From Nitrospirota bacterium (lineage in GTDB: Bacteria; Nitrospirota; UBA9217): a stretch of 61,043 nucleotides of DNA. The stretch lies in contig CAVUHW010000005.1 in assembly GCA_963741205.1 (NCBI GenBank), forward strand, positions 1 to 61,043. Direction: 5' to 3'. Position numbers and translations under genes: made by a program. Of the stretch, positions 140 to 30,795 are shown in pieces; the first letter of the stretch is position 1, and every line of letters starts with the position of its first letter. The notes under the pieces are model-generated. The model was not told where the DNA came from, did not search any database, and saw nothing but the letters and a program-made list of their open reading frames with translations.

Positions 140-230
140 TGACTTCTGGTTGTACTATTCAGCGCGTTTTCCATCCTGTAGTTCACGCTAAACACAAATC
201 GTGGATCTGCGCACTTCATGTCGTGAGTAT
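140..230 (+). repeat. Array-associated non-coding repeat, copy 1 (3' module)
   Basis: catcctgtagttcacgctaaacacaaatcgtggatctgcgcacttcatgtcgt matches copies at about 7620, 10890, 14180 and 23217. Confidence 0.85.
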
Positions 231-520
231 CAACACGTCGAATCTCCTGTACTATTGGTGTTCTTTCTTTGGCAACGATCAATACTTCTACATCTTATAT
301 TATTTGCTTAAGGTTTACTCGTTAAAGTCCAGCATAAGGAGCCAAAGACTGCAATCTGGGCACCCATCTCCACATGTGAGATGGAGATCCCCTTGACGGT
401 TTTATTGACTCTGCTGAACTAAGCCAGAATGCCAGCATTGCTTTTCCGGTTCAATGCCTATCCCTGATTCAAGCAGATGATGCGCAAGCCCGAGTCTCTG
501 TAACATACCCGAAACATCAA

Positions 521-556
521 AAAAGGGCAGCCACGCTGGAACCGCGGCTGCCCTTC
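521..556 (-). terminator. Rho-independent terminator of the upstream minus-strand surface protein gene
   Basis: gggcagcc...ggctgccc hairpin with an A-run on + (U-tract on -) just after the stop at 586. Confidence 0.7.
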
Positions 557-585
557 CTCATTTCTTATTGCCAAGGAACTGCCTC

Positions 586-3030
586 TTATTGAGTCTTGTA
601 GCTCCATACAGCACTCGAAGTCTGGCCGCCTTTGCCGTCGTCCGCAATGACCTTCCAGAAATACGTCGTGTTCGTCGTGAGGCCGGACACCTGGGTACTC
701 AACTGGTTGGCCGTGGCGCTGATCGGTGGCGTCGTCGCGTTGTCGTTGCTGCTTGAGTGGCAGGACATGAATACAACTCCAGAGAGCAAAAGGCATGTGA
801 TGGTAAGCATCGTCATCCTCGAGCGCTTTGATCCGCTGCCCGCGATGAAGCCGATCAAAATGATCCCCGCTCCGAAACTCCCCAGGCCGGCAAAGAACAG
901 TCCGGATGGCGCGGCTGCCGTAACGTCGGCATTCGTGCAGCCCGTCGTCATGGCCTGATCTGTACAGTTGTTGAAATGGTATATCACCGCGTCGCCATCG
1001 GGGTCCGCCGACTTGTTCCAGACGAACGTCATCGTAGCGGGGATCCCGGTCTGTCCGTTGATCGGCGAAACAAGGACGGGTTGCCGATGGGGGATTGTTT
1101 CCGGCCGCGGATATCCCGGCCCCGCTCACCGTCATGGTGACCGACGGCCTGTCCGGCCTCGTTGCTCGGAATATCGAATGTATCCGAGAGACCGCTGTTG
1201 GCGGTCGGCGCAAAGTGGACCGTGAGCGTGACAGTTGGCGGCCGGCGCAATCGTTTGACCGGAACACGGGTCTGCGGTGATGCTGAAAGGAGCGGCGAGC
1301 GGATCTGCGCTCGCGATCGTGCCGATGACCAGATTCGCGGTTCCCGTATTGGTGATGGTGACCGTCGCATCGGCCGTAGTTTCCGATCGCAGTGCCTGCC
1401 GAACGGTACCGCGTTATCATTCGCAGGGGCAATGGAATCCGTGACCGAGATGATCGGCACCGGCGACGGCTGTGCCCGTGCCGCTGAGGGCAAACGACGA
1501 CAGTCGGCGTAGCCGGGTCATTGCTCGGGATATTGAAAGTATCTGCTCGAAGCCGCGGCGGCGGTCGGCGCAAACCGCGCGGTTATCGTGCAGCTTCCCG
1601 CGCGCGGCAGCGTCATGTCCCGAACAGAGTGTTGGCCGAGGATGCTGAACGGCGCTGCAAGGGGATCTGCAACGGCGATGGTGCTGATGATAAGGGCGCC
1701 GTCGCCGGCATTGCTCAGGGTAATCAGATGATCAGAGGTTGTCCCGGTGGTCACGGTCGCCGAAATCGAAGGGCGGCGCGAGCGTAACCGTGATCTTCTG
1801 GGGCCTGAACTCGAATGCGCCCATGTCGCAGGTTGCCACGCCGTCAAGGGGAATGTTGCCGTCCACGGGCCGCGGGATTCCCCGTGCGTCCGTGGGAGGA
1901 CAGACTGTTGCCGAGCCCTTGTCGATGGCCGGGCTTCCCGCGGGTAGAGCAGTGGTTTGAAGAGCCCCCCCGTTAAGGGCGAGCGCGCCGAGCAGAGGGT
2001 CGGTATTAGGCAGGTCGCCTGGGCCGGCAAAGCCGCAGGTATTGCCGTTGTCAAGGTTGTTTCCCTGTGACGTGATCGCGCCGCCGCAGTTGGCGGGCGT
2101 ATTACCCGAGATGATCGTATTTCTGACCGTTACGATACTGCGGCGATATTTCGAATGCCGCCGATGGCAGCAACCGCTGCAGTGGACGTATTGCCGCTTA
2201 TCGTGACATTTTGCAGAGTGACGGTGCCGCGGTGTTGTCGATGCCCGCACCCTGTCCTGCCGAGCTATTGCCGCTGATCGTAATGTTCGTGAGCGTTATC
2301 GTGCCGTTGTTTTGGATCCCGCCGCCGGTGGTGTTGCCGCTCACTTCGCCGATGGTCCAGGTGAGCACTCCGGCCGCTCCGTTGTTGACACCGCCGCCGG
2401 TGGAGTCATTGTTCGTTACCGCGACCGTGTTCATGGGAGGGTACCGGAGTTGTCCACTCCGCCGGCTCCGGGAGCAGCGCCTCCGGCCTTACAGGCCGTG
2501 ACGACAGCATTGTTCAGCGTAACCGTTGTACCATTACCTACATGAATGCCGCCGCCCAGCCCGACGATGTTATTCCCGTTGCGGATGGTTACGCCCGAAA
2601 TGGTCACATTAGCGCCTACCCGGGTCTCAAACACTCTGTCGAGCGCGCCGCCGTCGATAATCGTCGTGGCCGCACCGGCGCCGGTGATGGTAAGCGCGCC
2701 TCCGAGTCCGGTGATGTTGAGGTCGCCGGTTGCAGCCGCATTTTCACCTGCTCCGGGAATGGTCAGCGTATAGGTCCCTGCAGGGAGGATAATGGTGTCG
2801 GCAACTCCGACGGAAGCATTCGCCGCCTGGATGGCCGAGCGGAGCGTGCATTGCCCTGCCCCGCTCACGCAATTGGCGGCAAGGCCGGCCGCGTCGAGCC
2901 GTGCTGTTGACCGTGAAAGTGTGCTGGCATGACCCTGGACCGGCCACAGGAAAAGCAGCATGAGTCCCAGTATGACGCCCCTCCCTGTTGGATTGAAAAG
3001 CTGTTTTGTTGCATGTTCATATCGTTTCTA
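586..3030 (-). CDS. Large secreted or surface protein (CSLREA-like N-terminus, choice-of-anchor Q beta-helix, choice-of-anchor D/Ig-like domains, C-terminal FN3-like domain); split by several frameshifts
   Basis: Fragments 2431-2961 (CTLRSAIQAANA, GDLNIT, DRVF), 2198-2434, 1732-2250 (ALPAGSPAIDKG, DARGIPRP..CDMGAFE) and 586-1032 (NTTYFWKVIADDGKGG) are collinear; RBS aaggagg near 3035; start approximate. Confidence 0.75.
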
Positions 3031-3705
3031 CCTCCTTAATGGGTTTTATGTACGTGATTATATATGAGTAAACAAGAGCTCATGCTTACAGTCCAGATAA
3101 GCGTGCGTTAGATGGTAGAACGATATCAACGAGGATACGTGATGCGGATGATTCACGCTATCATTCATCCCATGTAACTAGGGGAATTGCTTGGTTTTCG
3201 GATAAGAACCACACTTTTTCTTATCGATAGATATTAATATACCACAATGATGCAAGATTTTATTAAAGCGGATTAAAAACCCGGTTTTTATGTACCAGCT
3301 TAATACTGTCTCGATATTGGGACCCTACTTTACTTTACGTTAACGATGAACATTCTGTCCCCGATTCGGAACAGTTCCCGCTCCATGCGCAGGACATCCG
3401 GCGGGACCTCGCATATCTTCCGAAGCTCCTTCTCGAACATGGGGACCAGTTTGTCATTCAAGCGAGCTCCATGTCCATGAGGAAGACGGCTATGTTCATG
3501 TTGATGGGGGATATGGAGAGGCAAAGATTGCATTCCGAAATTAATAGTCGATGAGTTAAAATATTAGACCATCATGATGAGGAAAAGTGAATAAGAAAGC
3601 GTAATGAGCTGCAAACATGGTGCATATGATTCCCGATTTGCTTTATGAATTAAAAAAGAATTCCAGATGGATGTCTATGCCCACTTGGAAGATCTGGAAA
3701 TGATT

Positions 3706-4907
3706 TTAATCGATCCAAAAATACTCATTTTGAGAACTCGTGTCTAACGGACGGGATGGACGACCAGCCCGGATGCCATTTGACTTCAGACCTGAACTCC
3801 GATTGACCGGCAGCAGTATCGAGTTTGCCGCTTTGTGTTCCGCCTCCACGGCAATCCATTTCAATTCAATTTCAACTCTCGATTTAATCGCAATCGAGGA
3901 CGTGCCATCGGGCTGAAGCGTCCCTTCGACTTCAAGCGTGCATTCACGGCTCCATGCCACTCGACGGCACTGTACCTCCAGAAATATCGTTGCGTTGTTA
4001 GAGCTTTTCCTGTTCAGCTGCCCCATTCGGCACCATTCATCGTGAAGGAACCGATAGCTGCCAACGGCAATGCTCTGGATACTGACGTTATCTGCCGCTC
4101 TTTCTTGACACCTTCGCCAACTCCCATGGTTGCCTTATTCCCTCAATGGCGTCGCGGTAATCGTTATTGTCTTCCGTCTAGGGTTCCTTTTACTTCAACA
4201 TCGGCCCCAACAATGAGGTCTGCCGTCGTCAGATCGGGCATGTTCATTGTTACGGTGCGTTTACCACCGACGATTGTTCCCGATGGTCAAGCCGTTCCCT
4301 GTCACCGACGGTATTTCCGTGAAGCTCGGCCTTGCCGCTTGCACAAATGCATTTCTCTGAACTGAAATCCGTGTGCGCATGAAAAACACCCGAGTTACTG
4401 CATGCGGCCGTGAGCCTCGACTCCGGGATGCGTCGTGCCCGGTGAGCTTGGTTTGCAGCCCGGTTCAGCGCATCGGATACCCTTTGTCTTCAAATGATGG
4501 CGGTTGCCCTCGTAGCAACCTCCATGTCCCATGATCGATTAGCGTACCAGTGGTGCCGCTTACGACAACATTTGCCGCGGGTCCCGAAGTTCCGGCTGGA
4601 ACTCAATGGACTTGGATTCGCCCTTTTTCGTGGTTGCGTCGACAGCCCCTTTGACCGTGACATCATTCCGATCTTGAGGTCAGTTTGCACATGAGCTGTA
4701 TCGTCGAATTTGAATGTAACGGATGCATCGGGTGCATCCGCTTTCTTCGAAAATTCGACACCTTTGACGAATACGCTGCCGAAACCTGTGATGACGCCTG
4801 TGGTTACTTACGTCTTTGCAGCCATAACGGCCGTGCCGCTGTTACTGCTTGTACCATGACACCCAATAAAGGGCAGCGTCATGGTCAGCAGTACAGTGAG
4901 AAACATG
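3706..4907 (-). pseudogene. DUF5666-domain lipoprotein, disrupted by stops and frameshifts
   Basis: Lipoprotein-like start (LPFIGC), GVITGFGSVFVKGVEF and LEVEGTLQPDG...EIELKW repeats; several in-frame stops. Confidence 0.6.
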
Positions 4908-5119
4908 CTTCTCCTGAATTTCGCGTTAATGATTCGATCTCCTCTAGTTTTTCTATTCTTAATTGAACATTAGACGAACCACCGGTCAAAAGGTTACAGC
5001 GAAAAAACTTTCCAGAATACTTCCTGTACTATGCACACGGCCTCATCGTGCCGGGAGTGTAATTTTCATGTCGTAACATTCAGCGAGACCTTCATCCTTT
5101 TATGTTAAAAGTCAAGTCT

Positions 5120-5561
5120 GGTGTAGACTGGACAGGCTGGCCGAGGTTTTCCCCCGGGTTTTAGATGTTTTTTTTAATGGTCATGAAAGTGTGCCAGCCG
5201 TAGGGGGATTCCCCGGTGCATTCATCGTTAGTGAGACTTTTCTTTGTTGGGACAAAAAACGATTCTCACAAATGCCCCAGGATCAATTTCCCCGGGGCAG
5301 TCCATATCCTGATACCCCCTCCGTAGGATCCTTTCTCGGGATTTGCTCACAGAACGGACAAATCTTTAAAACCACGCTTTTATCAGCAGACATGCCTACA
5401 TCATAAAAGGCAGCTGCATTTCCTTGATCATGTATTAAAGTTGTGGGTCCGCAGTCTGTAGTAGTGCAGACACGCTTCATGAGCCGGCTGCAGGATGCAA
5501 CAAAGCGGTACCCACGATGGATCAGGTTCTAAGATTGGCCGCTCTAACGTGGTCCCGTTTC
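5120..5561 (-). ncRNA. Candidate seekRNA/bridge RNA region of the IS1111-type element
   Basis: Non-coding region 3' of the transposase; the minus-strand transcript contains CAUCCUG (5491-5497) and ACUACAG (5456-5462), matching top and bottom strands of CATCCTGTAGT around the shared core. Confidence 0.6.
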
Positions 5562-6632
5562 TTATTGTATAACCGCAGGCACATACTCCTTCTGGTTCTT
5601 CAGGACGTATCTGATGCGGTTCAATAGCTTTCTAGCGATATGAACGATGGCCCTTGTTTTTGGCATGTTCTTAGAGAGGCGTTCAAATGCCATCAGCAAC
5701 GCCGGGTCTTTCCGTGTAGCAATCCACGAGCTTTCAATAATCAAATGCCGAAGTGATTGGTTGCGTCGGTTGGTAATGCCTGTTGTTATGTCCTTTTCTC
5801 CGCTGGAGTCCGTATTGGGGATGAGACCGACATAGCTCGCAAGTTTGTCGAGTGATCCAAACCGATCGATATTACACAACTCCGTGAGAAACGTCATGGC
5901 GGTGAGTGTGCTGATCCCCGATACGGTTTTTAACAATTTCACATTAGCTTTATATTCATCTGACCGAGAGAGGACGCGAATGTTCCGATTCAATTCGACA
6001 ACGATCCCTCGGATATGGTGTAACTCTTGGAGATGCACCATAAAGGAGACATTGCCACTAGCCTTTTCCATGCGGATCGCCTCAAGCCATTTAATGAACT
6101 TGCTTGACCAGTTACTGGTAACAATGTCAGTGGGTAGATGAATGCCATAAAAAGCGAGCATGGACTTGATCTGGTTCTTGCACCGGGTCTGCTTCTTGAC
6201 CATGTTTCGTCGGGTTCTGATCAAGCTGCGATCTTCGACCTTTATCCGGGTGGGAACATAGATTCCTACAAGCTCTCCGTTTCTATGGCATCGGGCAAGT
6301 TTGCGGCAATCTACCTTATCGGTTTTGCCTGCCCGTTCCTTGTCTGTTGTCGGAATGTCAGCAGGATTTACCACTATGCAGTCGATGCCTTTTTCTCTTA
6401 ACTGGTCGTGGATCCAGAATCCGGAATAGCCGGCTTCATAAACAGCGTGATAGGTTGCGCCAGGGAAGTTCCGATTCAAGTAGTTGGCAAGAACCGATGG
6501 GTCCGGCGGTTGTGTAAAGGTCTTATGTTCAAACTGTTGAGTCAAGATGCATACACTCCAACTTTTCTTATGAACGTCCAAACCGACATAAATATGTTGA
6601 CCGCTGAAATCGAGTTTGCTAATGTTAATCAT
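5562..6632 (-). CDS. IS110-family DEDD transposase/recombinase
   Basis: YVGLDVHKKSW, YEAGYSGF, KTDKVDCRKLA, GLIPNTDSSG motifs; intact 356 aa. Confidence 0.95.
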   Translation of the reverse strand: MINISKLDFSGQHIYVGLDVHKKSWSVCILTQQFEHKTFTQPPDPSVLANYLNRNFPGATYHAVYEAGYSGFWIHDQLREKGIDCIVVNPADIPTTDKERAGKTDKVDCRKLARCHRNGELVGIYVPTRIKVEDRSLIRTRRNMVKKQTRCKNQIKSMLAFYGIHLPTDIVTSNWSSKFIKWLEAIRMEKASGNVSFMVHLQELHHIRGIVVELNRNIRVLSRSDEYKANVKLLKTVSGISTLTAMTFLTELCNIDRFGSLDKLASYVGLIPNTDSSGEKDITTGITNRRNQSLRHLIIESSWIATRKDPALLMAFERLSKNMPKTRAIVHIARKLLNRIRYVLKNQKEYVPAVIQ

Positions 6633-6712
6633 GGCAAGTCTCCTTTCGGTGTATTTTGGTCGCCTAAACGAAAATATACCTTAAGTCAGACTTGCCATTT
6701 TAATCATAAGGT

Positions 6713-6770
6713 CTGAAGTTCACGCCAGAGACCAATCGCAGTTTTGCGCACTTCATATCGAATTTATCAT
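6713..6770 (+). repeat. Array repeat copy 2, right half (left half about 5040-5098, split by the IS)
   Basis: ctgaagttcacgccagagaccaatcgcagttttgcgcacttcatatcg aligns with the other copies. Confidence 0.75.
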
Positions 6771-6829
6771 CCCAATCAGCCCTAGAAGAGACTACGAAGA
6801 GCATCGGCACAATTTCCCATTGTTTCCTA

Positions 6830-7510: not shown

Positions 7511-7559
7511 GCTGAAACGTTGAGAGAGTTTCGAACCATTTTTACAGAGAGGGAAAGTG

Positions 7560-7680
7560 ACCTGCCCCGGCCGTGAAAAGGGGGGCTGATCTTTTCTGGT
7601 AGAAATGTTCAGTCTCAATATCATCCTTTTATGTAGTTCACGCCAGATACAAATCGTGGATCTGTGCACTTCATATGGTA
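7560..7680 (+). repeat. Array repeat copy 3, with a 5-nt insert at the core
   Basis: ctgatcttttctggtagaaatgttcagtctcaatatcatcct-tttat-gtagttcacgccagatacaaatcg. Confidence 0.9.
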
Positions 7681-8000
7681 ATCCGAAGCAACTACCCATA
7701 GTACCTTGAAGTAGGCTCTACGATTGAGTGCATTCTACCTTCTTTTCAGCTGGCCAATACGGCTGGCCCTCTACTCTGCCCATGCAGTCCCGCCGCCATA
7801 TTCCCAGGCAGTTTCATAGAGCAGATGCACGTTAGAAACGCTTCATCACCCTTTTCCCCTCCTATGTTTTACCCATGCCCTCTGAGAACAATTTCCCTTG
7901 AACCTAAGAGTTTATGCGGATATACAAAAAACCCTTCTTTTGATAAGGTTTATCTAACGGTAGAGAGAAACATATAGAGCGTGAAAGGAGGGAACACATC

Positions 8001-8369
8001 ATGCTTACACTTACTGGAGGACAGGTGGTCAAGAACGGAACGTATTGGGATATGACAACCGGATTCAGGGTAGATATGGACCAGGAAGGCGCTTTGCCCG
8101 GAGGGAAGAACGCAAAGTACGTCAAGACTTCGTCGGGCGTGATCATGCTGGCCGGTCCCATTCTCGGGCTCGTCTACATCATTGCCCTGCCGATCCTGGG
8201 AGTCGTAACGGCCTTCGGGCTCCTGCTGCAGAAAACGCTCGGCGGCGTGTTCAATTTCGGCAGAACCATCGTCTCCTTCGGATGGAGGCCCGCCGAGTCC
8301 TATCTAAGGGGAAAGAACAAGAAGAAAGAGGATGCTGATGGGGCCGGGAAGCAGCCGAAGACACGCTAA
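8001..8369 (+). CDS. Hypothetical membrane protein
   Basis: 122 aa ORF with strong RBS and a hydrophobic segment; C-terminus SFGWRPAESYL shared with the next gene. Confidence 0.8.
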   Translation: MLTLTGGQVVKNGTYWDMTTGFRVDMDQEGALPGGKNAKYVKTSSGVIMLAGPILGLVYIIALPILGVVTAFGLLLQKTLGGVFNFGRTIVSFGWRPAESYLRGKNKKKEDADGAGKQPKTR

Positions 8370-8431
8370 CAGGGAATGGCCTTGTCGATGAGACAATAAC
8401 CTTACTATTCCACCCCAAGGAGGATGAAACA

Positions 8432-8830
8432 ATGAATACCATGTTTGATTTCGTAACCCATGTCAAAGGAATCGAGTATATCCTGTCTCTTGGCCTGATC
8501 GCCGGGTATCTTATCGTCTGGGAGGCGCTGAAACCGAAGCCGTTCCGCACGGTCAAGGAGGTTGGGCAGGAAGATCTGGCGCATTTGAAACGCAGAGGCA
8601 TGCCGGAAATCCTGAAACTGGCCGGCAGAGTCGTTTCCGCGCCCTTTGTCGGATTGTTCTATATTGTCACACTGCCTTTCAGCATGGTCGCTGCCCTAGC
8701 CTATGCGGTTTACACGGGAGTTGCCGGAAAGGGAGCATCCTTCTCCTGGCGGCCGGCGGAAGCCTATCTTACCGGCAAGAAGAACAAGAAGCAGGAACCT
8801 TCGGACACGAACCGGCCTGAAAAGAAATGA
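8432..8830 (+). CDS. Hypothetical membrane protein with an HmcD-like N-terminus
   Basis: TMFDFVTHVKGIEYIL N-terminus; SFSWRPAEAYL C-terminus; RBS aaggagg. Confidence 0.75.
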   Translation: MNTMFDFVTHVKGIEYILSLGLIAGYLIVWEALKPKPFRTVKEVGQEDLAHLKRRGMPEILKLAGRVVSAPFVGLFYIVTLPFSMVAALAYAVYTGVAGKGASFSWRPAEAYLTGKKNKKQEPSDTNRPEKK

Positions 8831-9080
8831 TCTGCCCTCGAGGGAGAAGCTTTTCCGGGACCGGGAACGCTTCTCCCCGTGATGGAATCGTCACGAGCTG
8901 ACTGTGAAATATTCGAATTCCAATTAAAAGAAGGCAGCATCTTTCCATCCTATCTCTATTGTTCTTACCCGTTCTCTGCGCACACCATAAAGTTTAACCA
9001 CAATGTTTGTAGCGCTTACCCTAATAATACCACGCCTAAAACATTGACAAATCTTCATATCGATGCTTTTATCTATGTAG

Positions 9081-9190
9081 TTCCCGATCAAGCCAAACCC
9101 TTCGCGAGAGGGGGACGGAAAGCGGCGGGTCTTAAAAGACCAAGATGGCCGAGCTGCCGAAGGATAATCTTTGTGCAGGTCGGCTTTTTC
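9081..9190 (+). promoter_or_regulatory. c-di-GMP-I (GEMM) riboswitch with terminator-type expression platform
   Basis: GCCAAACCCTTC-GCGA-GAGGGGGACGGAAAGC...GCCGAGCTGCCGA; G at the specificity position; downstream gcaggtcggc + U-tract can pair with gccgagctgc; ttgaca upstream. Confidence 0.9.
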
Positions 9191-10169: not shown

Positions 10170-10682
10170 ATGACGACAAAGAAGTCACTGCGGGTTCTCG
10201 TCGGCATCTGTGTGATCTCCGCCTGCGTGCTTGGGGCGACCATGCAGGCGGGGGCAGAGACCCTGAACTACAAGACTTACACCTGGGTGATTAAATGGGA
10301 GAGAGCGCCGGTCGGCGATGTGGAGGGGCATGCGGTGAATCTTGTGGTGCGCGGCGGATTTAACGTATTTGAAAACGGGGAGGTTGCGACGGCTAACGCT
10401 GTCGGAACAAATGATTACATCAACGGGGCAGGCCCGTTCATGCAGTATGTCACCATCAAGTTTCCCGATGGGTCTACCATTATGTACAAGAGTCAAGGGA
10501 CGATGGGAGCAGGAGGGGGAGCGGGCGCATATACCAGCGAAATCATCAAAGGGACAGGCCGATTTGAAGGAATCAAGGGGACGCAAAGCGCTAAACTGAA
10601 GTACCTTCCCCTCGAACCAGGGGAAGCTGGAGCACGGGGATACGGGGAAGGAACGATCACCTACACCCTCCCGTCCAAGTGA
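10170..10682 (+). CDS. Secreted hypothetical beta-barrel protein (cassette-type)
   Basis: Signal peptide; IIKGTGRFEGIKG motif; followed directly by an attC-like site. Confidence 0.85.
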   Translation: MTTKKSLRVLVGICVISACVLGATMQAGAETLNYKTYTWVIKWERAPVGDVEGHAVNLVVRGGFNVFENGEVATANAVGTNDYINGAGPFMQYVTIKFPDGSTIMYKSQGTMGAGGGAGAYTSEIIKGTGRFEGIKGTQSAKLKYLPLEPGEAGARGYGEGTITYTLPSK

Positions 10683-10698
10683 ACGGCGGGTGAGAGCC

Positions 10699-10765
10699 GG
10701 CTAACCCCCGCATCCACACCGACGCGTGCAAGATCGGCGCGCATGGGTGATGCGGACCGTTCTAA
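10699..10765 (+). other. attC-like integron recombination site
   Basis: ggctaac...cgcatc[c]ac[a]cc / gggtgatgcg...gttctaa: AAC/GTT ends and a hairpin with two extra bases on the left arm. Confidence 0.8.
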
Positions 10766-10940
10766 TGCACCTTCAACTCGTATTTCACGCTTTGCAAATC
10801 GAGTGTGTCCGCGTAGTTGTAAGTGACGTTGATGCCGGCCGAAAAAAGTCAGTCTGATCTTTTCTGGTAGAAATGTTCAGTCTCAACGTCATCCTGTAGT
10901 ACACGCCAGATACAAATCGCGGATCCGCGCACTTCGTGTC
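10766..10940 (+). repeat. Array repeat copy 4, starting at the attC end
   Basis: gttgtaagtgacgttgatgccggccgaaaaaagtcagtctgatcttttctggtagaaatgttcag...catcctgtagtacacg. Confidence 0.9.
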
Positions 10941-11069
10941 GGAGATCACGTCCTTAAGCGTGTCGTCGCCCTCGCCGCTGATCAGCATGTTGAGGGAGTA
11001 GGTCTCCCGCGTTATGATGTGTTGAGATGCGATGAAGCAGCTCAACCTTTCTGGATAGTCGTAGATCAT
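10935..11069 (-). pseudogene. Fragment of a sigma-70 family (RpoD/RpoS-like) gene, region 3
   Basis: RETYSLNMLISGEGDDTLKDVISD resembles the SLETPIGEEGDSxLGDFIED motif; fused directly to the repeat. Confidence 0.5.
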
Positions 11070-13498: not shown

Positions 13499-13657
13499 CC
13501 CGGCATTCGTCAAGATGATACGACTCCGTGATGAAAAAAACAATATCAAATTTCTCACGGATATCCGATGAAGAGGATCTACGATCAACTCGATCCGCGT
13601 GGTAAGATGCGAGTAGATGATGATTTGAGTGCCGTGCGATCAGAGAAAGGAGAAGAA

Positions 13658-13945
13658 ATGTCACCTGATAAAATTCAAGCTATTCGTGATTATCTGGGTA
13701 AACGCTTCCCACACTCAAGACATGATGATGAAATCGATTTCGATAGATATGGACACAAATTCCGAATCGTTACAAATGACTCGGTGTTACTGTTTTCTGT
13801 CTCTGCATCATTTATCGAAGATAATGAGATAGACATACTGGCCAAGACACTTGATAGACTTGAAATAGTTAGCCAATTAGAAAACAATCAAGAGTCAACC
13901 GTTATAGTCAGAAAATCTGGCATATCAGTCGTTCCGAGAAATTAA
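13658..13945 (+). CDS. Hypothetical protein
   Basis: AT-rich ORF with RBS aaagga before ATG 13658. Confidence 0.6.
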   Translation: MSPDKIQAIRDYLGKRFPHSRHDDEIDFDRYGHKFRIVTNDSVLLFSVSASFIEDNEIDILAKTLDRLEIVSQLENNQESTVIVRKSGISVVPRN

Positions 13946-14001
13946 TTGACTTGACCTGCAAACGAAAGTATCGCATATCAAGGATAACTTAAGGACACTG
14001 T

Positions 14002-14038
14002 TTCTAACATTGTCTTGCATCCGACAAATCAGTTAGAT
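14002..14038 (+). other. Collapsed attC-like remnant
   Basis: ttctaac...gttagat complementary core ends but too short for a full site. Confidence 0.35.
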
Positions 14039-14104
14039 CAAAGTTTATTGATTAGAAACAGCCTCCTCAACATTCTCCCTTCATACCACAGGCTTGTGTT
14101 GCAC

Positions 14105-14235
14105 ATTAGTAAGTGTCGTTGATGCTGGCCGAGAAAAGGTAGTCTGATCTTTTCTGGTCGAAATGTTCAGCCACATTAACATCCTGTAGTTCACGCATGT
14201 CGCTTATCGCGAGTCTGCGTACTTCCCGTCGAATT
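14105..14235 (+). repeat. Array repeat copy 5
   Basis: gtaagtgtcgttgatgctggccgagaaaaggtagtctgatcttttctggtcgaaatgttcag...catcctgtagttcacg. Confidence 0.9.
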
Positions 14236-14423
14236 TACCAATTCCACAACGATAAATCTCACGTTGACCGGCATTGATGTTTGCTGTGGACCTGAATGCT
14301 GTGTTGATTATTGCACGTCTCTATCTATTATCCTCAGAGAGAAAAATATTACCCAATTTTCCAGATTTTGGTATCATAAACTCCTGGCGTGCACACATGG
14401 ATATTTAGCGGGGGGTATCCCTA

Positions 14424-16488
14424 ATGAAAAGGATTGTATATACATTGGAAGCAGTATTGTTTCTTCCTGTGATCATGGTGGTTCTGAGCTGCGGACCTGA
14501 TGGGAAAATAATCAGCCCATATTCTCGAATAACGTCCCTGTTGCGAATGCCGGGCCCGACCAGAACGTGACGACGACAACGGTAGTAACACTTGATGGCA
14601 GCGGGAGCAGCGATACCAACGGCGATGCGTTGACATACAGTTGGTCATTTACGTCAAAACCTGCTGGGAGCACGGCGATGCTATCCAGCTTGGCGGTGGT
14701 CAATCCAACATTTACCGCGGACAAGGACGGGGCGTATGTACTCAGCCTCGTGGTCAACGACAGCACGGCAAGCAGCACGGCGGATACGGTGACGATCAAT
14801 GCAGCAACAGCCAACTCGGCGCCTGTTGCGAATGCAGGTCTGGACCAGAACGTAGCGACGACAACGGTAGTAACACTTAATGGCAGCGGGAGCAGCGATA
14901 CCAACGGCGATGCGTTGACATACAGTTGGTCATTTACGTCAAAACCTGCTGGGAGCACGGCGATGCTATCCAGCTTGGCGGTGGTCAATCTAATGTTTAC
15001 CGCGGACAAGGACGGGGCGTATGTACTCAGCCTCGTGGTCAACGACAGCACGGCAAGCAGCACGGCGGATACGGTGACGATCAATGCAGCAACAGCCAAC
15101 TCGGCGCCTGTTGCGAATGCAGGTCTGGACCAGAACGTAGCGACGGCAACGGTAGTAACACTTAATGGCAACGGAAGCAGCGATGCCAACGGCGATGCGT
15201 TGACATACAGTTGGTCATTTACGTCAAAACCTGCTGGGAGCACGGCGACACTATCCAGCTTGGCGGTGGTCAATCCGACGTTTACTGCGGACAAGGATGG
15301 AGCGTATGTACTAAGCCTCGTGGTCAACGACGGCACGGTAAGCAGCACGGCGGATACGGTGACGATCAATGCAGCAACAGCCAACTCGGCGCCTGTTTCG
15401 AATGCCGGTCCGGACCAGAACGTAGCGACGACAAGGGTAGTAACACTTGATGGCAGCGGGAGCAGCGATGCGAATGGCGTATGCTCACTTACGCTTGGTC
15501 GTTTACATCAAGGCCAGCCGGAAGCATGACAGCGCTTTCAAGTTCCACAGTGGCCAAACCAACGTTTACGGCTGACAAAGACGGGGCGTATATACTTAGC
15601 CTCCTGGTCAATGATGGGCAGGTAAACAGCGCAGCAGATACCGTAACAGTAATAGCTTTTAGACCAGTCCCTGTACCTGACACTGGCCAGTCGACTCACT
15701 ATACCGCTACGTTTGGTGAAGACGCCGACTATCTCATTAACCCGCAGTCATTTGCAGACAACGGGGATGAAACAATCACTGACAATATTACTGGGCTTGT
15801 GTGGCAAAAGCAGGATGACGGAATAATCCGTAACTGGTCGGATGCGAATACGTATTGCAATAACAATAGCCCTGGCTTGCCTGGTTCTGGTTGGCGACTT
15901 CCAACACGTATGGAATTGTTGAGTATTATAAACTACGGTAAAGATAATCCTGTAGCTGACATTTCATATTTTCCAAATACCAAATCATTGTCGTACTGGA
16001 CGTCTATTACGACCCCAAATAATACGACCATTGCAAGGCTCGTTGGCTTCGATTATGGCACGACGGGCATCGGGAATAAAACCGACACTTCCTACGTACG
16101 TTGCGTTCGGGGAGGAGCTGCGTTAAAGAGCATCATAGACAACGGAGACGGTACCATCACCGACGCATTCACTACTCTCATGTGGCAAAAACAGGACGAC
16201 GGGACTACGAAGACATGGGAGGGTGCAATAGCCTACTGCGAAGGCCTAGTCTTTGCCACATATTCAGACTGGCGACTGCCGAACATCAAAGAATTGAGTT
16301 CCCTTGTAGATGACGGCAGATATGTGCCGGGAATTGATACCTTCTATTTCCCCAATACGCAATCTTCGGTCTATTGGTCTTCTACAACCTCTGGATGTAC
16401 GGTTGCTGGATGGGGTGTAAACTTCTGGGGCGGGGATACAGATGCCTTTAGTAAGGTCAGTTCCTATTCTGCTCGGTGTGTTCGCTAA
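14424..16488 (+). CDS. Lipoprotein with PKD/K319L-like Ig repeats and two C-terminal DUF1566 (Lcl) domains; frameshifts near 14510 and 15480
   Basis: Lipobox VLSC; PVANAGxDQNV..TLDGSGSSD repeats; DNITGLVWQ, WRLP, YWSS, VRCVR motifs twice. Confidence 0.85.
14536..15480 (+). repeat. Intragenic tandem repeat, 285-bp unit, about 3.3 near-identical copies
   Basis: Shadow ORFs recur at 14641, 14926 and 15211 (period 285). Confidence 0.95.
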
Positions 16489-17340: not shown

Positions 17341-17359
17341 CTGGACAACGGAGAACTTC

Positions 17360-17432
17360 ACTAATTGATGGCCCCAGCACGCGAAGCGGCCTGTTTCGCT
17401 TCGCTCTCAGGTCATCCGCACCACCGTTCTCT
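17360..17432 (+). other. Degenerate attC-like hairpin
   Basis: gcgaagcg...cgcttcgc hairpin ending ggtcatccgc..cgttc, located after the gene stop. Confidence 0.4.
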
Positions 17433-17464
17433 CCCTCGCTGCGCTCGGGATTCTGCAGGTTTCT

Positions 17465-17635
17465 ACTGGTATTCGTTAAAGTTTTAATAGATCGCAACTC
17501 CAACAGTTGTAGGTGTTGTCGATGACCGTGATGGCGCCAAAGAACAACAGATGCCATTCGTAACTTTCAACGATTCCTGCATCCTGGACTAATCGCCGAG
17601 TGCAGAACTTGGAAATTATAACTTTCATGCCGTAA
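17465..17635 (+). repeat. Array repeat copy 7 (subtype B)
   Basis: gtaggtgttgtcgatgaccgtgatggcgccaaagaacaacag...attcctgcatcctgga, close to the copy at 27847. Confidence 0.85.
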
Positions 17636-17779
17636 TCGATGCCCCTTATGATTTAGATTCATTCAGCAATCTGAATCACGCCTCCTCTATTTCAATATAT
17701 TCTACTTGCCCCTTATACCGGAATAAAGTATCCTCGCAATATAAGTACAAAAATATTCCGGTGTTGGTCTCGAGTATCC

Positions 17780-18544: not shown

Positions 18545-18662
18545 ATGACACCAAAATGTAACGTGAGACGGATCAGTGATTTTTTCGATGAAAAATAATC
18601 GTCGCGTCTTGCATCCTGACATCGCAAAAATAGTCAGCAGAGAAATTGTGCAGTTCATACTA
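18545..18662 (+). repeat. Array repeat copy 8 (diverged), interrupted at its 3' end by IS630
   Basis: gcatcctgacatcgc...tgtgcagttcatac aligns with catcctg...gcacttcat. Confidence 0.55.
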
Positions 18663-22655: not shown

Positions 22656-22657
22656 TA

Positions 22658-22912: not shown

Positions 22913-23008
22913 ACTCATAGATCGAAGAAACATGATTTACTTAACTTAAGTTTGATAAATAGTCGCATTCATATGCGACTGCTTGATTTAATTAATCAAC
23001 TATAAGGA

Positions 23009-23068
23009 TTCCAACAAGCGGGTTAAGTCCACCACGAAGAGAGCGTGCGACTTACGCGCGAGTTCATG
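23009..23068 (+). other. attC-like site
   Basis: ttccaac..cgggt[t]aagtc / gacttacgcg..gttcatg. Confidence 0.7.
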
Positions 23069-23069
23069 T

Positions 23070-23270
23070 GATTGTTACCGGAATTTCGCAGTTTACCGAT
23101 TAAGCGCGGATCCAAATGGATAAAAGCTGTACCACGTGCCGAGAAATATCATCCTTGGGGAGCTGTGCCAGCCTGGAGCAGCATCAATTCCGATTGTAAA
23201 CTTCAGTGCGGCGAACATCCTGTAGTTCACGCGAAACACAAATCGCGGGTCTGTGCACTTCATGTCGTAG
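23070..23270 (+). repeat. Array repeat copy 10, starting at the attC end
   Basis: taccggaatttcgcagttt...catcctgtagttcacgcgaaacacaaatcgcgggtctgtgcacttcatgtcgt. Confidence 0.9.
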
Positions 23271-23593
23271 TTGTTGCCGTTGCCTTTGATGGAAACATCC
23301 ACACATCTTCCTGTAAATTGCACATGTGATATGATGAAAGCAGTTGTATGTTTCATGTGGAATTATTGCCTCATCTACAAAGAACATCACCACCCAGTGA
23401 TCGGGAAAACAGGTGTAAAAAAGTGACAACCCTAAGAATTCCCATTCTGCATTCCTATTCTGCATCGTTGACTTCACCAAAAGTTTGTGCTTTAGTTCAA
23501 ACATACGTCTGTAACCCACATTACACGACATTCTGAAAAGTATTCAGAATGGATATTAATGTTTCTTTGACACCCACTGGAACAAATAAATGA

Positions 23594-23710
23594 TTCCACG
23601 ATAAAGCCAAACCCTTCGTGAGAGGGGGACGGAAAGCGGCGGATCTTAAAAGACCAAGATGGCCGAGCTGCCGAAGGATGATGCCTTTGGTGAGCTCGTC
23701 CTTTTTATTT
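23594..23710 (+). promoter_or_regulatory. c-di-GMP-I riboswitch, second copy, with terminator
   Basis: Aptamer nearly identical to 9081-9165; cgagct...agctcg + U-tract; ttgaca upstream. Confidence 0.9.
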
Positions 23711-23861: not shown

Positions 23862-23892
23862 CACGTGACCGATCAGAAGGGAGGGGAGAGTA

Positions 23893-24471: not shown

Positions 24472-24531
24472 TTCTAACAAATCGGCTCGCAGAGGTCGCG
24501 AAAACTTCGCCCCTCAGCCGAGCCGTTCACA
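24472..24531 (+). other. attC-like site
   Basis: ttctaac..cggct..agagg / ccctcagccg..gttcaca. Confidence 0.7.
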
Positions 24532-24760
24532 TGTACTTTTCATCTAGTCTTTCGCATTGAAGTTTAGTCAACACGCATGCGAGCTTGTAGATAGATTCCG
24601 TAATTTCCAATTGCCGCAACTTCAACGGACTTTAGCTGGGATTTGTTAAATATTCAATCCATCGAAACTCGTTTGCTCGTAGGTGGTGTCGAGATAGGCA
24701 TGATTTTAGAGGAGGTGTAAAATCTCAATTGGAATATGATGCGCACTCTTCTTTCTGTAT
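24532..24760 (+). repeat. Array repeat copy 11 (diverged)
   Basis: gagcttgtagatagattccgtaatttccaa...gtaggtggtgtcgaga shared with 27750 and 30730. Confidence 0.65.
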
Positions 24761-24897
24761 CTTGCACCCGTGATAATGTAAGCTTCATTGCATGTTTCAA
24801 GTGGAATCCTTGTCCATGAGATTTATCTTCGTGGCGTTTATCGATGGATTTATGCTATCGTAAGTCTCAATAGAATCAACTTTCAGGAGTGGGTATA

Positions 24898-26475: not shown

Positions 26476-26764
26476 AGAACATCTTAGACATAATGGCTGC
26501 CCGATAAGAATATTGAGGACGTGCAGAATTGCGTTTGAATCATGCAATGCGGCCTACATCTGAACTGTTGGAGTTGCCGTGCTCAGCAACACTCAATATT
26601 TCATTCAGTATTTCTTAACATTGTCCTCATTGACAGCGCATCTGCCTCAGGTATATAGTCGTACTACCTTAGTCTTGAAACAAAGCCGATATGGCATAAT
26701 CATTACTAAACTAGATAACACCGCAAATCTGATATTATCGAGGGGGCTCGCTAATAACGGATTT

Positions 26765-26980: not shown

Positions 26981-27084
26981 TCTGCAGGTTGAAACTGATG
27001 AGGTCCCATACAAATGAAAGAGCTTACTGGTACAAAAGGCATCTGCTCCATCATGCAGCTGAATAAAAAAGGAGGGAACACAAA

Positions 27085-27519
27085 ATGAAAAAGTTGCGGA
27101 AAGTTCAGAAGAGTTTATAAGTATCATCAAGGAATGGATAGATTTGGAAGACAAGACAATTACAAGCGCCGACGAATTGATAGGCAAGGCGAACCAATCC
27201 CTTTGTGAAGATGAGAATGGAGATGGTCAAGCATGATTCAGGAAAACACAAAGAAATGCTGCAGTGGATAATCGATAACTTGACAAAGGAGGCCATACAT
27301 CTTACTCCCGATGAAATAATGCCTCTGTCCGCATTGCTGCATAAGCACTTGGAAGTGGAAGCCAAGTCTATTGTCCTTGCCAACAATGCTCTTAAAAAGA
27401 GCGGGCTTCCCATAGTGAGATATATTTTGTCGGCTCTGCTCGATGACGAAACAAAGCACCACGAACAAATTATTAGGTTAAACGATGAAATAAAGAAGGC
27501 AATATTGTCGGTAACTTAA
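27085..27519 (+). CDS. Ferritin-like four-helix protein (N-terminal frameshifts)
   Basis: RBS ggagg; HDSGKHKEML, HLEVEAKSI, LLDDETKHH. Confidence 0.7.
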
Positions 27520-27749
27520 CTTTTCATGAAAAAATGATATAGTGATAAAGTAAAAGGGCGGTCAGCGCTGTTGGACTATGATGGAAAGACTGAAGCAGCA
27601 CATGTAGAAAGCAAGCTGTATCGGGTCAAGGAAAACCGGATTCCGAGGGAGGGTTTGCTGCTACTTGGCCATGGGATATAACTTGCACTTGGGAGGTAAT
27701 ACAGCATTCTACTAGAAGTTTAGTATGCCGTTGACAATTTGCTAATGCT

Positions 27750-27970
27750 AGGCTTGTAGATATATCACGTAATTTCCAAACAATGAAACTTTCGTGAAGT
27801 ACAGACGGTATTTCGCAAGCTTGTCAGTTGCCCGTCTTGGGCATTAGTAGGTGTTGTCGATGACCGTGATAGCGCCGAAGAACAACAGACTCCATTCGTA
27901 GCTTTGATCGATTCCTGCATCCTGAAGTTCTCGCCCAACGATATCGTTTGAATTATCAACTTCATTCAGT
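27750..27970 (+). repeat. Array repeat copy 12 (longest, subtype B)
   Basis: gcttgtagatatatcacgtaatttccaaa...ggtatttcgcaag...gtaggtgttgtcgatgaccg...catcctgaagttctcg. Confidence 0.85.
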
Positions 27971-28168
27971 AATTGGCGGCAGTAGGATCAGCTCGATGAA
28001 GCTTGCTTAGATCCAGCGACGTCAGGAAAAGAAGGCATGGTATTAAATCGTTCTTCGCTTTTACGATGTTTCGAACAAGGGGCAGAGAAAAGATTCTCTG
28101 CCCCCCTGTTATTTTGACGGTTGCCTCCATAGCCGATACTCGTTCTTCGTCACTGAATAATGCGCTTC

Positions 28169-29071
28169 TTAATTGTTGTTTGCTCCCTGGTCTATCCAGA
28201 TTTTTATGATGAGTTGATTGCTCGAGCTGAAAGGACCTTTTCCTAACGGCATCCGTGCTGTTCCCGCGGGCAGTCCGATACCGCTGACCCGCTGATAGAG
28301 AACGCTGTTCACGGAGTCTCCGGGAACAACCAGCGTACCGGTTGTTTTCGACGCGGGCTGGTTCACGAGGGCCGTATATGACGCATCCGAGGTCAGGTGG
28401 AGAAAACTCGCAATGCCGGACGAGCTGTGGCACTCTGCGCACATGGCGCTCAGGAGGGACTGGATCCGCCATTTAAACGACACGGCCGGCGTCGCTCCCG
28501 GCTCCACCTCTACGCCGTCCATGACGTCTCCGGTGAATAGCATGTCGTTGGCATTTACGTTGACGTGACATCCGATGCATCCATCCACTTTCCCCGAGAG
28601 TACTACCGTTCCGTCCGGCAGATATTCTGCCCAAAACCAGTCCCCCGCTGCGGGGTTGAAATTCTGGACCTTGTACATCACGGTGAGAGCGGCAAGCGTT
28701 TTGTCGGGACCGTAGTTTTCCTTAACGACGATCGAGCCGTCAGCCATGCCGTGCTGTGCGGCGGGATCAGTTGCCGCGTTAATAGAATTCACCGCAATGT
28801 CGTTTACGTAGTTGTTAAGGAACGCGCCGTGCGGGTCCCTTCCCGGATAGAGCTTTGTGGTCAGCGGCCACGCAGCCCAACTGGTATAGGGGTTTTGGTT
28901 CTTGATGTAGTTAAAAAGCTGTGCCGCGTCCGCGCCCGGCAGGGTAGCCGGAGCAGGTGATTCGCCTCCCTTGCTGCCGCAGGCCGTCAAGCATAATGCC
29001 GCCAGAAAAAACATATAATATGACGTCATTCTTATCCTGCCTCTCGAGTTCATCTTCTTCTCCTTTCTCAA
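28169..29071 (-). CDS. Cytochrome P460/c'-beta family lipoprotein with a second c-type heme domain
   Basis: LTAC lipobox; GSIVVKENY, TVMYK, GDWFWA, CIGCH; second CAECH...RMP domain; terminator hairpin near 28078-28105. Confidence 0.85.
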   Translation of the reverse strand: MRKEKKMNSRGRIRMTSYYMFFLAALCLTACGSKGGESPAPATLPGADAAQLFNYIKNQNPYTSWAAWPLTTKLYPGRDPHGAFLNNYVNDIAVNSINAATDPAAQHGMADGSIVVKENYGPDKTLAALTVMYKVQNFNPAAGDWFWAEYLPDGTVVLSGKVDGCIGCHVNVNANDMLFTGDVMDGVEVEPGATPAVSFKWRIQSLLSAMCAECHSSSGIASFLHLTSDASYTALVNQPASKTTGTLVVPGDSVNSVLYQRVSGIGLPAGTARMPLGKGPFSSSNQLIIKIWIDQGANNN

Positions 29072-29257
29072 TCTTAATCGTGAAATCCATTAAGATAAGT
29101 ATAGCGCGCATTTTTCACCCTAAGCGAAGGGTCTAGCAAAATGTCGGGAAAAGCTAGATTCTTCGTCATGCTCGAAATGACAAACCGGGCTGATTCGGCA
29201 TTCGTGAAAAAGGCTCATCAGAGTTGTAAAAGGAGCCGCCGGCGACCGCCGACACCC

Positions 29258-29335
29258 CATGATGCCGGCCTGAAAGAAGAAATCTGAGGCTATTCAGGTT
29301 AAACTGTTCAGTCACAACATCCTATACTTTTAGTG
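29258..29335 (+). repeat. Array repeat copy 13 (partial)
   Basis: tgatgccggcctgaaagaagaaatctgaggctattcaggttaaactgttcagtcacaacatcct aligns with 10830-10895. Confidence 0.75.
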
Positions 29336-29398
29336 TCCTTATTTTTGGCAACAATCAATACTTCATCTTGAAGTATTGAGAAACAAGAGCACGATTTC

Positions 29399-29445
29399 CG
29401 CTAACCTGCTCCGAACTCAACATCGGAGCAATATTGACGTTATAC
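29399..29445 (+). other. Short attC-like hairpin
   Basis: cgctaac..tgctccga / tcggagca..gttatac. Confidence 0.35.
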
Positions 29446-29596
29446 GCTCTGTCGGGCAGATGCTCGGGCCAGAACCAGCATTTTCGGATTGTCTTCTATG
29501 TAGCAATAACCAACGAATGGGAAATCAATTACCCAAAAATGAAATACATTACGACAGGTAATCATATGCAATGCTGTATAATCAATCAGTTAAAAA

Positions 29597-29614
29597 TCGG
29601 CATGGTATTTGCTC
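29597..29614 (+). promoter_or_regulatory. Sigma-54 promoter
   Basis: cGGCAtggtatTTGCt, GG-N10-GC. Confidence 0.6.
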
Positions 29615-29883
29615 AGTTATAAAATATATTCATATTACTTTAATGTTTTTAAAACGTTTTATCGCGGCTGCGGGAAATAAATGAAAATGTCCAACGGATT
29701 CATTTACCGGTAAGTGCCAAAGGGAACAAGCTTCAGCAAGAATGCCCCCGAGCAAATAGCTCGGATCGAGTATCCGCTTAACAGCCGAACTGGTATCAAC
29801 GAGAATTCAATAACGACATATCGTTTAAGATACTCATTCGATAACATCGACAGTTCTTCATACCTTGTGACAGTATTCGTTCC

Positions 29884-29915
29884 TCAATAAAGCTAAACTC
29901 TTCGCGAGAAGGGAT
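29884..29915 (+). promoter_or_regulatory. Truncated c-di-GMP-I riboswitch (P2 half only)
   Basis: aataaagctaaactcttc-gcga-gaaggga resembles the 5' half of the two full copies; P3 is absent. Confidence 0.55.
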
Positions 29916-29934
29916 ATCCTGCAGTTTCCTTATT

Positions 29935-30531
29935 TTGATGACGAAAGAGAGGGGAAAAATGAAAGTAACCGGGAAAGCAATGATCGTTTTTATTATGGTC
30001 CTAGCAGTACTCCTCGCGTCAAATGTACCAGCATTTGCAAGGGAAGGCTTTTACCTTGGCGTGCAGTTGCCATATGACATTATCCAAGGAGATTTCGATG
30101 GTACGAATGCACCTTCCGTTGATTCGGGACTAGGTATCGGGATCATTTTCGGTTACGGAATCACTCCGAACTTTTCACTCGGATTAGATTTATCCTCTAG
30201 CAGACATGACGTCGGAGTCGATAGGATCAGCTTTACTGAATTCAGCTTCGACGCGAAATACGCCTTCCTTGCTTCGGAGCCCGTCCAGCCTTATCTCCTT
30301 GCGGGATACGGTGTCTATAGGCTCGGGGACAGCAGCCTGACGTTTGGCGGTAAAGGCTTTAACCTTGGTGTGGGCGTAGATTTCTATACCAAATCCAACT
30401 GGTCCTTCGGCCTAGGACTCATCCGAAAGTTCATTACCTATGACGAGGTAGTTAAAGGCGATGTAATACTGCAAAAAGATCTGAACGGCGACACAACAAC
30501 GATACGATTTGATGCTACCTATCACTTTTAA
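29935..30531 (+). CDS. Outer membrane beta-barrel protein (OmpA-TM/porin-like)
   Basis: Signal peptide; GFYLG, VQPYLLAGYG, FNLGVGVDFY; terminal YHF. Confidence 0.85.
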   Translation: MMTKERGKMKVTGKAMIVFIMVLAVLLASNVPAFAREGFYLGVQLPYDIIQGDFDGTNAPSVDSGLGIGIIFGYGITPNFSLGLDLSSSRHDVGVDRISFTEFSFDAKYAFLASEPVQPYLLAGYGVYRLGDSSLTFGGKGFNLGVGVDFYTKSNWSFGLGLIRKFITYDEVVKGDVILQKDLNGDTTTIRFDATYHF

Positions 30532-30684
30532 TACGCTGCCGCAGCAGCAATAAGCAAAAAACACTGGCAGCAATACGACCAGCATAGTGGCATTCTGCAA
30601 CTCCCATTAATTAGATTGCGTTGTATATTTGCAGATTTTCGCATAGCGAGCTCTCTATATTTCTCGAGACGTGAACCTCTTGCA

Positions 30685-30795
30685 TAGTACAACCGGAATT
30701 TCGCAGTTTTACCAACCGGGCTTAGCCGTGAGCTTGTAGATATATCCCGCGATTTCCAAAATATTAAACTCCTGCAAAGTACAAACGGAAGTCGT
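30685..30795 (+). repeat. Array repeat copy 14 (5' modules)
   Basis: aaccggaatttcgcagtttt...gagcttgtagatatatcccgcgatttccaaa. Confidence 0.75.

Follow-up and report, generated by a model that had tools for sequence, protein, structure and literature searches.

A hairpin-less modular repeat in an accessory island of a Nitrospirota genome and its targeting by IS110-family insertion sequences

Knowledge of interspersed repeats that organize the accessory genome comes mainly from detailed work on a few cultured bacteria, whereas such repeats have hardly been examined in uncultured phyla. The BOX elements of Streptococcus pneumoniae are modular (boxA-boxB-boxC), with stable stem-loops and inverted-repeat-like ends, and IS621, an insertion sequence (IS) of the IS110 family, targets REP elements and uses a CT core. 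BOX elements are treated as interspersed repeats in PMC3049150, and IS110 elements are described as choosing their targets via a guide RNA, often in intergenic repeats (PMC11208160; PMC11187229; bioRxiv 10.64898/2026.03.19.712850). Here, we characterize a repeat found in a 61,043-nucleotide (nt) stretch of DNA from a Nitrospirota bacterium (contig CAVUHW010000005.1 of assembly GCA_963741205.1). This stretch, the window, is C5:1-61043 of a 4.27-Mb assembly of 50 contigs (C numbers denote contigs, and G numbers denote genomes). At roughly even odds (a probability of about 0.5), we consider the repeat to be a lineage-specific, hairpin-less modular interspersed repeat that accumulates in the flexible genome, is a preferred IS110 target, and supplies portable homology.

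A sequence-only covariance model (R1; cmsearch), whose source alignment (A1) contained 28 copies, identified 15 copies in the window at E <= 3e-4, from 135 to 30761. Every one is on the minus strand, and relaxing the threshold to E <= 1 revealed no copy past 30761. The original prediction of about 14 co-oriented copies is in agreement with this result. Thirteen of its 14 places were recovered; the place at 18545 was found by neither profile, and two copies had been overlooked (12734 and 26527; R1). A direct-repeat search likewise returned families of 57 to 123 nt at the predicted places. The motifs named at that time are rare as typed (a 27-mer with 3 matches and 0 expected, and a 14-mer with 2 matches and 0.82 expected) because the copies are degenerate, and exact IUPAC patterns are too insensitive for a collection-wide scan (10 matches for the best pattern versus 77 copies for the profile). 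The second of the proposed modules (gcttgtagatatat..aatttccaa) looks, by eye, like a diverged variant of the third rather than a separate module. Genome-wide, an iterated nhmmer profile of 170 positions (E <= 1e-4) detected 77 copies on 20 of the 50 contigs, with a single orientation within each contig. The repeat is about 170 to 200 nt long, and truncated copies are common. As predicted, it is too long and too degenerate for attC sites or for clustered regularly interspaced short palindromic repeats (CRISPR): the window array has degenerate units spaced 0.8 to 4.8 kb apart, not short identical repeats with regular short spacers. We confirm that the repeat is real, noncoding, and modular and that it separates unrelated accessory genes.

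Read on the minus strand, the element extends from near TTAACAAATTCGACATGAAG to near CTGCGAAAT.CCGGTTG(T/A)AAC(ATG), with the inner anchors CTTCAGGATG, CTGAA..TTTCGACC.GAAT, and CATCGAC..CACCTAC. The same anchor motifs are kept in other genera, and the segments between them, fixed in length, form discrete subfamilies that differ strongly from one another. In a set of 116 in-register pairwise alignments with at least 80% identity, similarity begins at model positions -5 to 10 (47 pairs) or 40 to 55 (39 pairs) and stops either in the 55 bin (31 pairs) or at 100 to 130 (39 pairs). The element is therefore a mosaic of modules A (~1-55), B (~45-125), and C (~125-170), which assort independently and are joined by short conserved motifs. 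Some copies have a further 75 conserved nt upstream of module A.

The copy at 5040/6713 is interrupted by an IS110-family IS at 5099-6711, whose junctions read ...CATCCT followed by TTTATG and ...AAGGT followed by CTGAAGTT. The genome contains 13 IS110-type genes. A profile search of IS flanks, combined with reading of the junctions, revealed three IS110-type insertions that interrupt a copy at the identical position, ATCCT^CTG(A/T)A, each flanked on either side by CT. One IS accounts for the insertions on C5 and C41, and another, oppositely oriented IS for that on C45; C14 may hold a fourth insertion (profile E 0.004). The insertion position (model 48/49) is also the sharpest module boundary. 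With independent insertions at one position and a shared core dinucleotide, the element is a preferred target of IS110 elements. The noncoding region 3' of the transposase gene contains one 7-nt match (CATCCTG) to the target, which is approximately the chance level by plain reading of the sequence. The suggestion of a landing site stands for IS110 insertions and is unlikely for a dedicated cassette-recombination site. The repeat copies, the IS, the attC-like hairpins, and the bounding core genes of the window are as follows (ORF, open reading frame).

135..234, minus strand: repeat copy, modules A and part of B (model 4-103); R1 51.4 bits, E 9e-15
5061..5098, minus strand: B-side half of the IS-split copy (model 61-98; nhmmer model 49-91); R1 E 2.9e-4, junction read
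5099..6711, minus strand: IS110-family IS inside the repeat copy (Pfam DEDD_Tnp_IS110 and Transposase_20; junctions), with the transposase ORF at 5562-6632 and a noncoding region of ~460 nt 3' of the ORF
6713..6771, minus strand: module A half of the IS-split copy (model 4-62); R1 E 5.5e-6
7554..7683, minus strand: repeat copy (model 10-136); R1 58.9 bits
10696..10770, plus strand: attC-like imperfect hairpin after the gene at 10170-10682, directly before a copy; DNA fold -14.3 kcal/mol, z -0.40
10769..10949, minus strand: full-length repeat copy (model 7-187); R1 109.2 bits
12734..12880, minus strand: repeat copy absent from the original prediction (model 6-151); R1 28.9 bits, E 7.8e-8
13983..14081, plus strand: attC-like hairpin after the gene at 13568-13945, before a copy; inverted repeat I2, fold z -3.38
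14096..14243, minus strand: repeat copy without module C (model 3-150); R1 100.9 bits
16499..16688, minus strand: full-length repeat copy; R1 98.7 bits
17350..17432, plus strand: attC-like hairpin after the chagasin-like gene, z -2.22, with complementary end boxes (GGAGAAC / GTTCTCT) that pair in the minimum-free-energy structure
17451..17642, minus strand: full-length repeat copy; R1 98.3 bits
20674..20858, minus strand: full-length repeat copy; R1 85 bits
23008..23073, plus strand: attC-like hairpin before a copy; sequence, fold z -1.08
23070..23277, minus strand: repeat copy with a 26-nt insertion in module B; R1 77.7 bits, alignment
24621..24807, minus strand: diverged repeat copy; R1 29.9 bits, E 4e-8
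26527..26620, minus strand: partial copy absent from the original prediction (model 3-96); R1 24.8 bits, E 1.4e-6
27790..27976, minus strand: full-length repeat copy (direct-repeat family D8), with an extra partial piece at 27752-27808; R1 91.3 bits
29205..29375, minus strand: repeat copy; R1 35.6 bits
30678..30761, minus strand: last copy, module C only (model 112-194), at the island edge; R1 23.8 bits, E 3e-6
31224..33518, minus strand: core genes bounding the island, a crp-like regulator (31224-31901) and prfC (31914-33518); Pfam, synteny with four congeners

The copies share neither a reading frame nor a fold. Among 42 copies of at least 100 nt, a stop-free frame was present in 16 on the element strand and in 11 on the other strand, and this frame was inconsistent, as had been predicted. 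Conservation exhibited no codon periodicity (p 0.84, 0.43, and 0.94 for the three modules), two subfamilies exhibited no synonymous excess (best p 0.03 of 12 uncorrected tests), and Pfam searches of 10 ORFs at copies returned no shared family at E <= 1. Decayed paralogues of a known protein family would have overturned the prediction, and these tests do not support such a nature of the copies. An identity with DUF4160 or DUF2442 was considered and rejected; the models match only cargo genes (C9:7541-8025 and window positions 30820-30951) and no copies. The former is an intact DUF4160-DUF2442 pair, and the latter, on the plus strand, is a fragment of DUF2442 that covers only profile positions 26-70, sits at the island edge, and has no DUF4160 partner. 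RNAalifold returned 0 consensus pairs on 17 and on 28 copies, for either strand. Fold z was about 0 for 18 full-length copies relative to shuffles (means of -0.15 and 0.04 for the two strands), and its mean for module A was -0.22 over 43 copies. At the gathering score, Rfam had no match to the element, and the window matches were limited to two cyclic di-GMP (c-di-GMP) riboswitches. The suggested noncoding RNA family is thus not supported, given the absence of consensus pairs, fold signal, and Rfam family. The repetition of an internal, iteron-like 12-nt motif was at best borderline and not significant (best score of 3.1 versus a null maximum of 3.03 in 30 shuffles). The element is short, noncoding, intergenic, multicopy, and lineage restricted, like BOX, REP, and ERIC elements, and the fold z values revealed none of their palindromic or stem-loop potential.

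The genome also encodes an integron integrase on C18 (367 bits; cut-off 265), which is accompanied by three classical attC-like cassettes, and the nhmmer profile found no repeat copy on that contig. The integrase match (~312 amino acids [aa]) lies within a 498-aa open frame (C18:131982-133454, minus strand; 440 to 560 aa in most relatives), which may reflect an N-terminal extension or merely an open frame. The element is present in 31 of 36 other genomes of the family versus 17 of 36 for the integrase, and the presence of one does not follow that of the other; for example, G019 has four integrase matches and 0 copies (for G001, G011, and G026, only 30 candidates were scored). The element neither lies in an array beside an integron integrase nor tracks one across genomes, and it does not form the single-strand imperfect hairpin (R''-L''...L'-R') of attC sites (RNAalifold 0 pairs; fold z ~0). 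Its ends (..TTAACAAATTCG and ..CCGGTTG(T/A)AAC) contain AAC and GTT, with boxes that by eye are not complementary (versus RYYYAAC / GTTRRRY). Four window copies begin 0 to 30 nt after an imperfect hairpin with AAC...GTT ends (10696-10770, 13983-14081, 17350-17432, and 23008-23073), and the claim that at least four begin at an attC-like end is therefore roughly right. The DNA-fold z values of these hairpins (-0.4, -3.4, -2.2, and -1.1) are similar to those of two integrase-proximal sites (-1.1 and -1.9). Genome-wide, hairpins are not enriched beside module C (3 of 28 flanks with z < -2; p 0.61 versus the other flank). Three home-made attC scanners were blind or unspecific (17 matches in the array half versus 12 in the core half), and the attC counts therefore rest on inspection. 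A MAFFT/RNAalifold consensus of eight attC-like sites contained 0 pairs. From the hairpin z values, the lack of genome-wide enrichment, and the integrase mismatch, we conclude that the array holds a few integron-type sites and that the repeat is not one of them.

Two further proposals linking the copies to integrons are not supported. The copies are not confined to attC arrays, given that they are dispersed on both strands in G001 and G002, do not track the integrase, and are absent from C18. A reading as stand-alone amplified cassettes lacking ORFs is likewise unsupported, as the copies lie at the start of units that carry genes and an attC-like hairpin precedes just 4 of the 15. We also rejected a link to tyrosine recombinases; the multicopy recombinase genes of G001 and G011 do not adjoin copies. 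These genes are identical within each genome (10 copies of a 295-aa frame in G001 and 11 of a 313-aa frame in G011) and look like a mobile element family of their own.

Searches with R1 detected the element in all 14 genomes of the genus that were compared; the 24 genomes drawn from 11 further families of the phylum yielded none. The near-closed genomes G001 and G002 have copies spread over several contigs in both orientations, with local clusters whose members share a strand. On contig C1 of G001, all but two of the copies listed up to ~0.68 Mb occupy the plus strand, and the two listed beyond 1.04 Mb occupy the minus strand, which suggests a polarity that perhaps follows replication or gene direction. 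Plasmid and phage collections contained no match to a copy. No copy was present on metagenome contigs with relatives of an endonuclease cargo gene (best identity of 60%; best 13 of 23 loci), and one DNA sequencing run (share 0.06, contigs) contained only short, diverged pieces and one low-depth opposite-strand joint. The original prediction would also have fallen if the copies matched a known REP or miniature inverted-repeat transposable element (MITE) scattered genome-wide; they are scattered genome-wide and belong to no described family. A stretch of 1648 nt that includes a partial repeat copy is shared at 99.9% identity by C19 (~8.3-10 kb) and C21 (~58.5-60.1 kb), representing either a recent duplication or assembly redundancy.

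The element resides in intergenic accessory DNA, usually following a gene at a distance of 50 to 100 nt, with its orientation fixed and opposite to that of the gene. By crude ORF calling, 53 of 73 genes preceding a copy were co-oriented, as were 46 of 75 genes following one. The window cargo is unrelated and mostly on the plus strand, including (by Pfam) a cytidylate-kinase-like protein, GGDEF, response regulator, PKD/Lcl, and PHP proteins, a chagasin-like inhibitor, a methyltransferase, a nuclease, GYD, hemerythrin, and P460 proteins, and an outer-membrane protein. Strong sigma-70-like promoter-like sites lie just beyond module A (16716, 21049, 23567, and 26630), consistent with the prediction that the copies separate unrelated cargo genes with their own promoters. 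In four of four congeners, prfC (with crp in three) is followed within 144 to 361 nt by a homologue of C10:71980, running downwards, and R1 found no copies in 120 kb fetched from these loci. This empty site implies that, in the present genome, the corresponding position is occupied by C5:1-31000 together with some or all of C10 beyond 72 kb. C10 has seven co-oriented copies at 76.9-110.7 kb, and two of two sampled 10-kb pieces further on that contig had no DNA homologue in G001 or G002 beyond matches of <=70 nt. The window array is one end of a large strain-specific island between crp and a pyridoxal phosphate (PLP)-enzyme gene. Cargo also moves without the element: the piece at 7819-8961 has a 94% identical copy on C31, a contig without a repeat copy by the nhmmer profile.

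Within the same island, C10:78-84.5 kb (L048 8107-14504) contains four or more copies or fragments of group II introns (Rfam D1-D4 and D5-D6; four RVT_1 ORFs), adjoining another IS110 and an IS3-like element. We rejected these introns as repeat-linked elements; they are nested in the island and are not tied to copies. Two c-di-GMP-I-GGC riboswitches (9083-9162 and 23597-23676, plus strand; 69.7 and 71.8 bits) lead cargo units in the window. The ~110-nt riboswitch stretch has many matches in 22 of the 36 family genomes, with several per genome among the best 8 candidates, and this riboswitch class appears unusually abundant in the lineage. At 14537-15647 (plus strand), four tandem 285-nt repeats (73 to 98% identical) encode the PKD domains of a secreted protein, followed by Lcl_C; the reading frame is seemingly split (14567-15529 and 15481-16488).

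In the reading that we prefer, one anchor motif serves as the specific insertion site for at least two different IS110-family ISs, as the insertions on C5, C41, and C45 show. Recombination via IS copies and shared modules could then reshuffle modules and the cargo between copies, and such reshuffling may give the array its cassette-like look. Several observations weigh against this interspersed-repeat reading. The 15 of 15 copies on one strand over 31 kb and the four copies that follow attC-like hairpins look more ordered than a passive repeat. No IS accounts for the second module boundary (~110-130), and the combination of cross-genus anchors with fixed-length variable segments suggests a selected function. 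The ends, compared by eye, have at most a weak, gapped inverted resemblance, and because neither terminal inverted repeats nor a target duplication nor a filled-versus-empty site could be detected for the element, mobility of the element itself is unsupported. The island comparison rests on congeners of other species. The per-genome copy counts in relatives rest on the best <=41 scored candidates.

Strict co-orientation within every contig, together with unrelated cargo bearing its own promoters, might instead mark the element as the site at which a second cassette system recombines without the integron integrase; units of cargo plus one element would be inserted into other copies and thereby build co-oriented arrays. 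The coincidence of the sharp module boundary (model ~50-55) with the IS110 insertion point, the absence of the island from four of four congeners, and two independent paralogue groups in which upstream cargo travels with module C and similarity ends at ~+46 to +50 would all fit such a system. Against it, there are two or three boundary zones rather than one crossover point, most shared modules lack shared flanks, the cargo at 7819-8961 has its 94% identical C31 copy without a listed repeat, single copies are dispersed in G001 and G002, and no recombinase gene lies regularly beside the arrays (G000 has only seven Phage_integrase matches). We consider this system unlikely, and the same low probability attaches to its enzyme being a recombinase of an unnamed type or the RNA-guided recombinases of the IS110 type acting at ATCCT^CTG. 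An attachment site of integrase-free cassette accretion, with an IS110-type or other recombinase joining cargo and element at ATCCT^CTG, is quite unlikely; such accretion would yield co-oriented super-arrays of tens to >100 kb, as between crp and the PLP-enzyme gene here. We also regard as improbable that the array is a degenerate integron cassette array without an integrase and the element a conserved 5' leader or the remnant of a cassette lacking an ORF. The 4 of 15 copies lying 0 to 30 nt after an attC-like hairpin (3' box GTTC(T/A)NN or ATTCTCC) would be expected of such an array, as would the same arrangement, by eye, on C9 and C41 and in three G001 loci, the true integron integrase and classical attC cassettes on C18, and cargo typical of chromosomal integrons (small genes and toxin-antitoxin-like pairs). 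However, 11 of 15 window copies lack such a hairpin, unusually good folding beyond module C is limited to 3 of 28 flanks (p 0.61 versus the other flank), the integrase contig is devoid of copies, the integrase (17 of 36 family genomes) does not follow the element (31 of 36), and the attC counts were made by inspection because the scanners were unspecific.

A regulatory module, made up either of regularly spaced motifs for protein binding or of an antisense RNA without structure and serving to insulate or control neighboring accessory genes, would explain why anchors are conserved across genera and intervening segments vary at constant length, and also the fixed orientation relative to the preceding gene. 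It is further compatible with the strong sigma-70-like cargo promoters just beyond module A, with a conserved T-rich motif ~15 nt upstream on the element strand in G001, and with two other genera in which 5 to 8 nt separate the end of a copy from a homologous unit's promoter and riboswitch region. Nevertheless, the conserved part contains no consensus promoter, just 1 of 11 promoter-like matches on the minus strand is at a copy start, the internal binding-motif repetition is borderline, and many copies are truncated; we assign this explanation little probability. Decayed fragments of a small minus-strand protein-coding gene, suggested by a conserved ATG at the start (TTCGACATGAAG) and by translations of some copies that are alike by eye, are very improbable. 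The lack of a consistently open frame, codon periodicity, synonymous excess, and Pfam family, with DUF4160 and DUF2442 models that miss the copies, already largely refutes such an origin.

As an interspersed repeat, the element is of interest because it is hairpin-less, modular, and conserved family-wide and marks the boundaries of accessory-gene units in a strain-specific island. It is also a natural multicopy target of at least two IS110-type (bridge-RNA) recombinase elements. These properties make it a natural system for studying how RNA-guided ISs choose "safe harbour" repeats, and it allows one to test whether such repeats and ISs drive cassette-like gene shuffling outside integrons. A role as a true recombination site, should it have one, would make it a second kind of cassette system.

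Among known systems, attC sites and the IS1111-attC pairing are similar in having co-oriented sites between unrelated cargo with or without promoters, a strain-specific array, and targeting by ISs with DEDD transposases. Unlike attC sites, the element lacks a hairpin and, by eye, complementary R/L boxes, measures 170 to 200 nt, is not linked to an integrase, and is dispersed outside arrays. MITEs are comparable in size, copy number, noncoding nature, and truncated and diverged copies; unlike MITEs, the element has no convincing terminal inverted repeats or target-site duplications, and no autonomous parent element was found. As in the REP sequences and conserved intergenic targets of the IS110 family (IS621 and ISPpu10), a multicopy repeat is entered at one insertion position with CT on both sides, but the target here is not palindromic and accommodates two different ISs at the same position in opposite orientations. 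Like BOX elements, the repeat is short, noncoding, intergenic, lineage specific, and present in many copies, with modules in varying combinations; unlike them, it has no fold signal on either strand and forms long co-oriented arrays in an accessory island. By analogy, the repeat thus resembles in kind the BOX, REP, or ERIC elements, but in a hairpin-less form.

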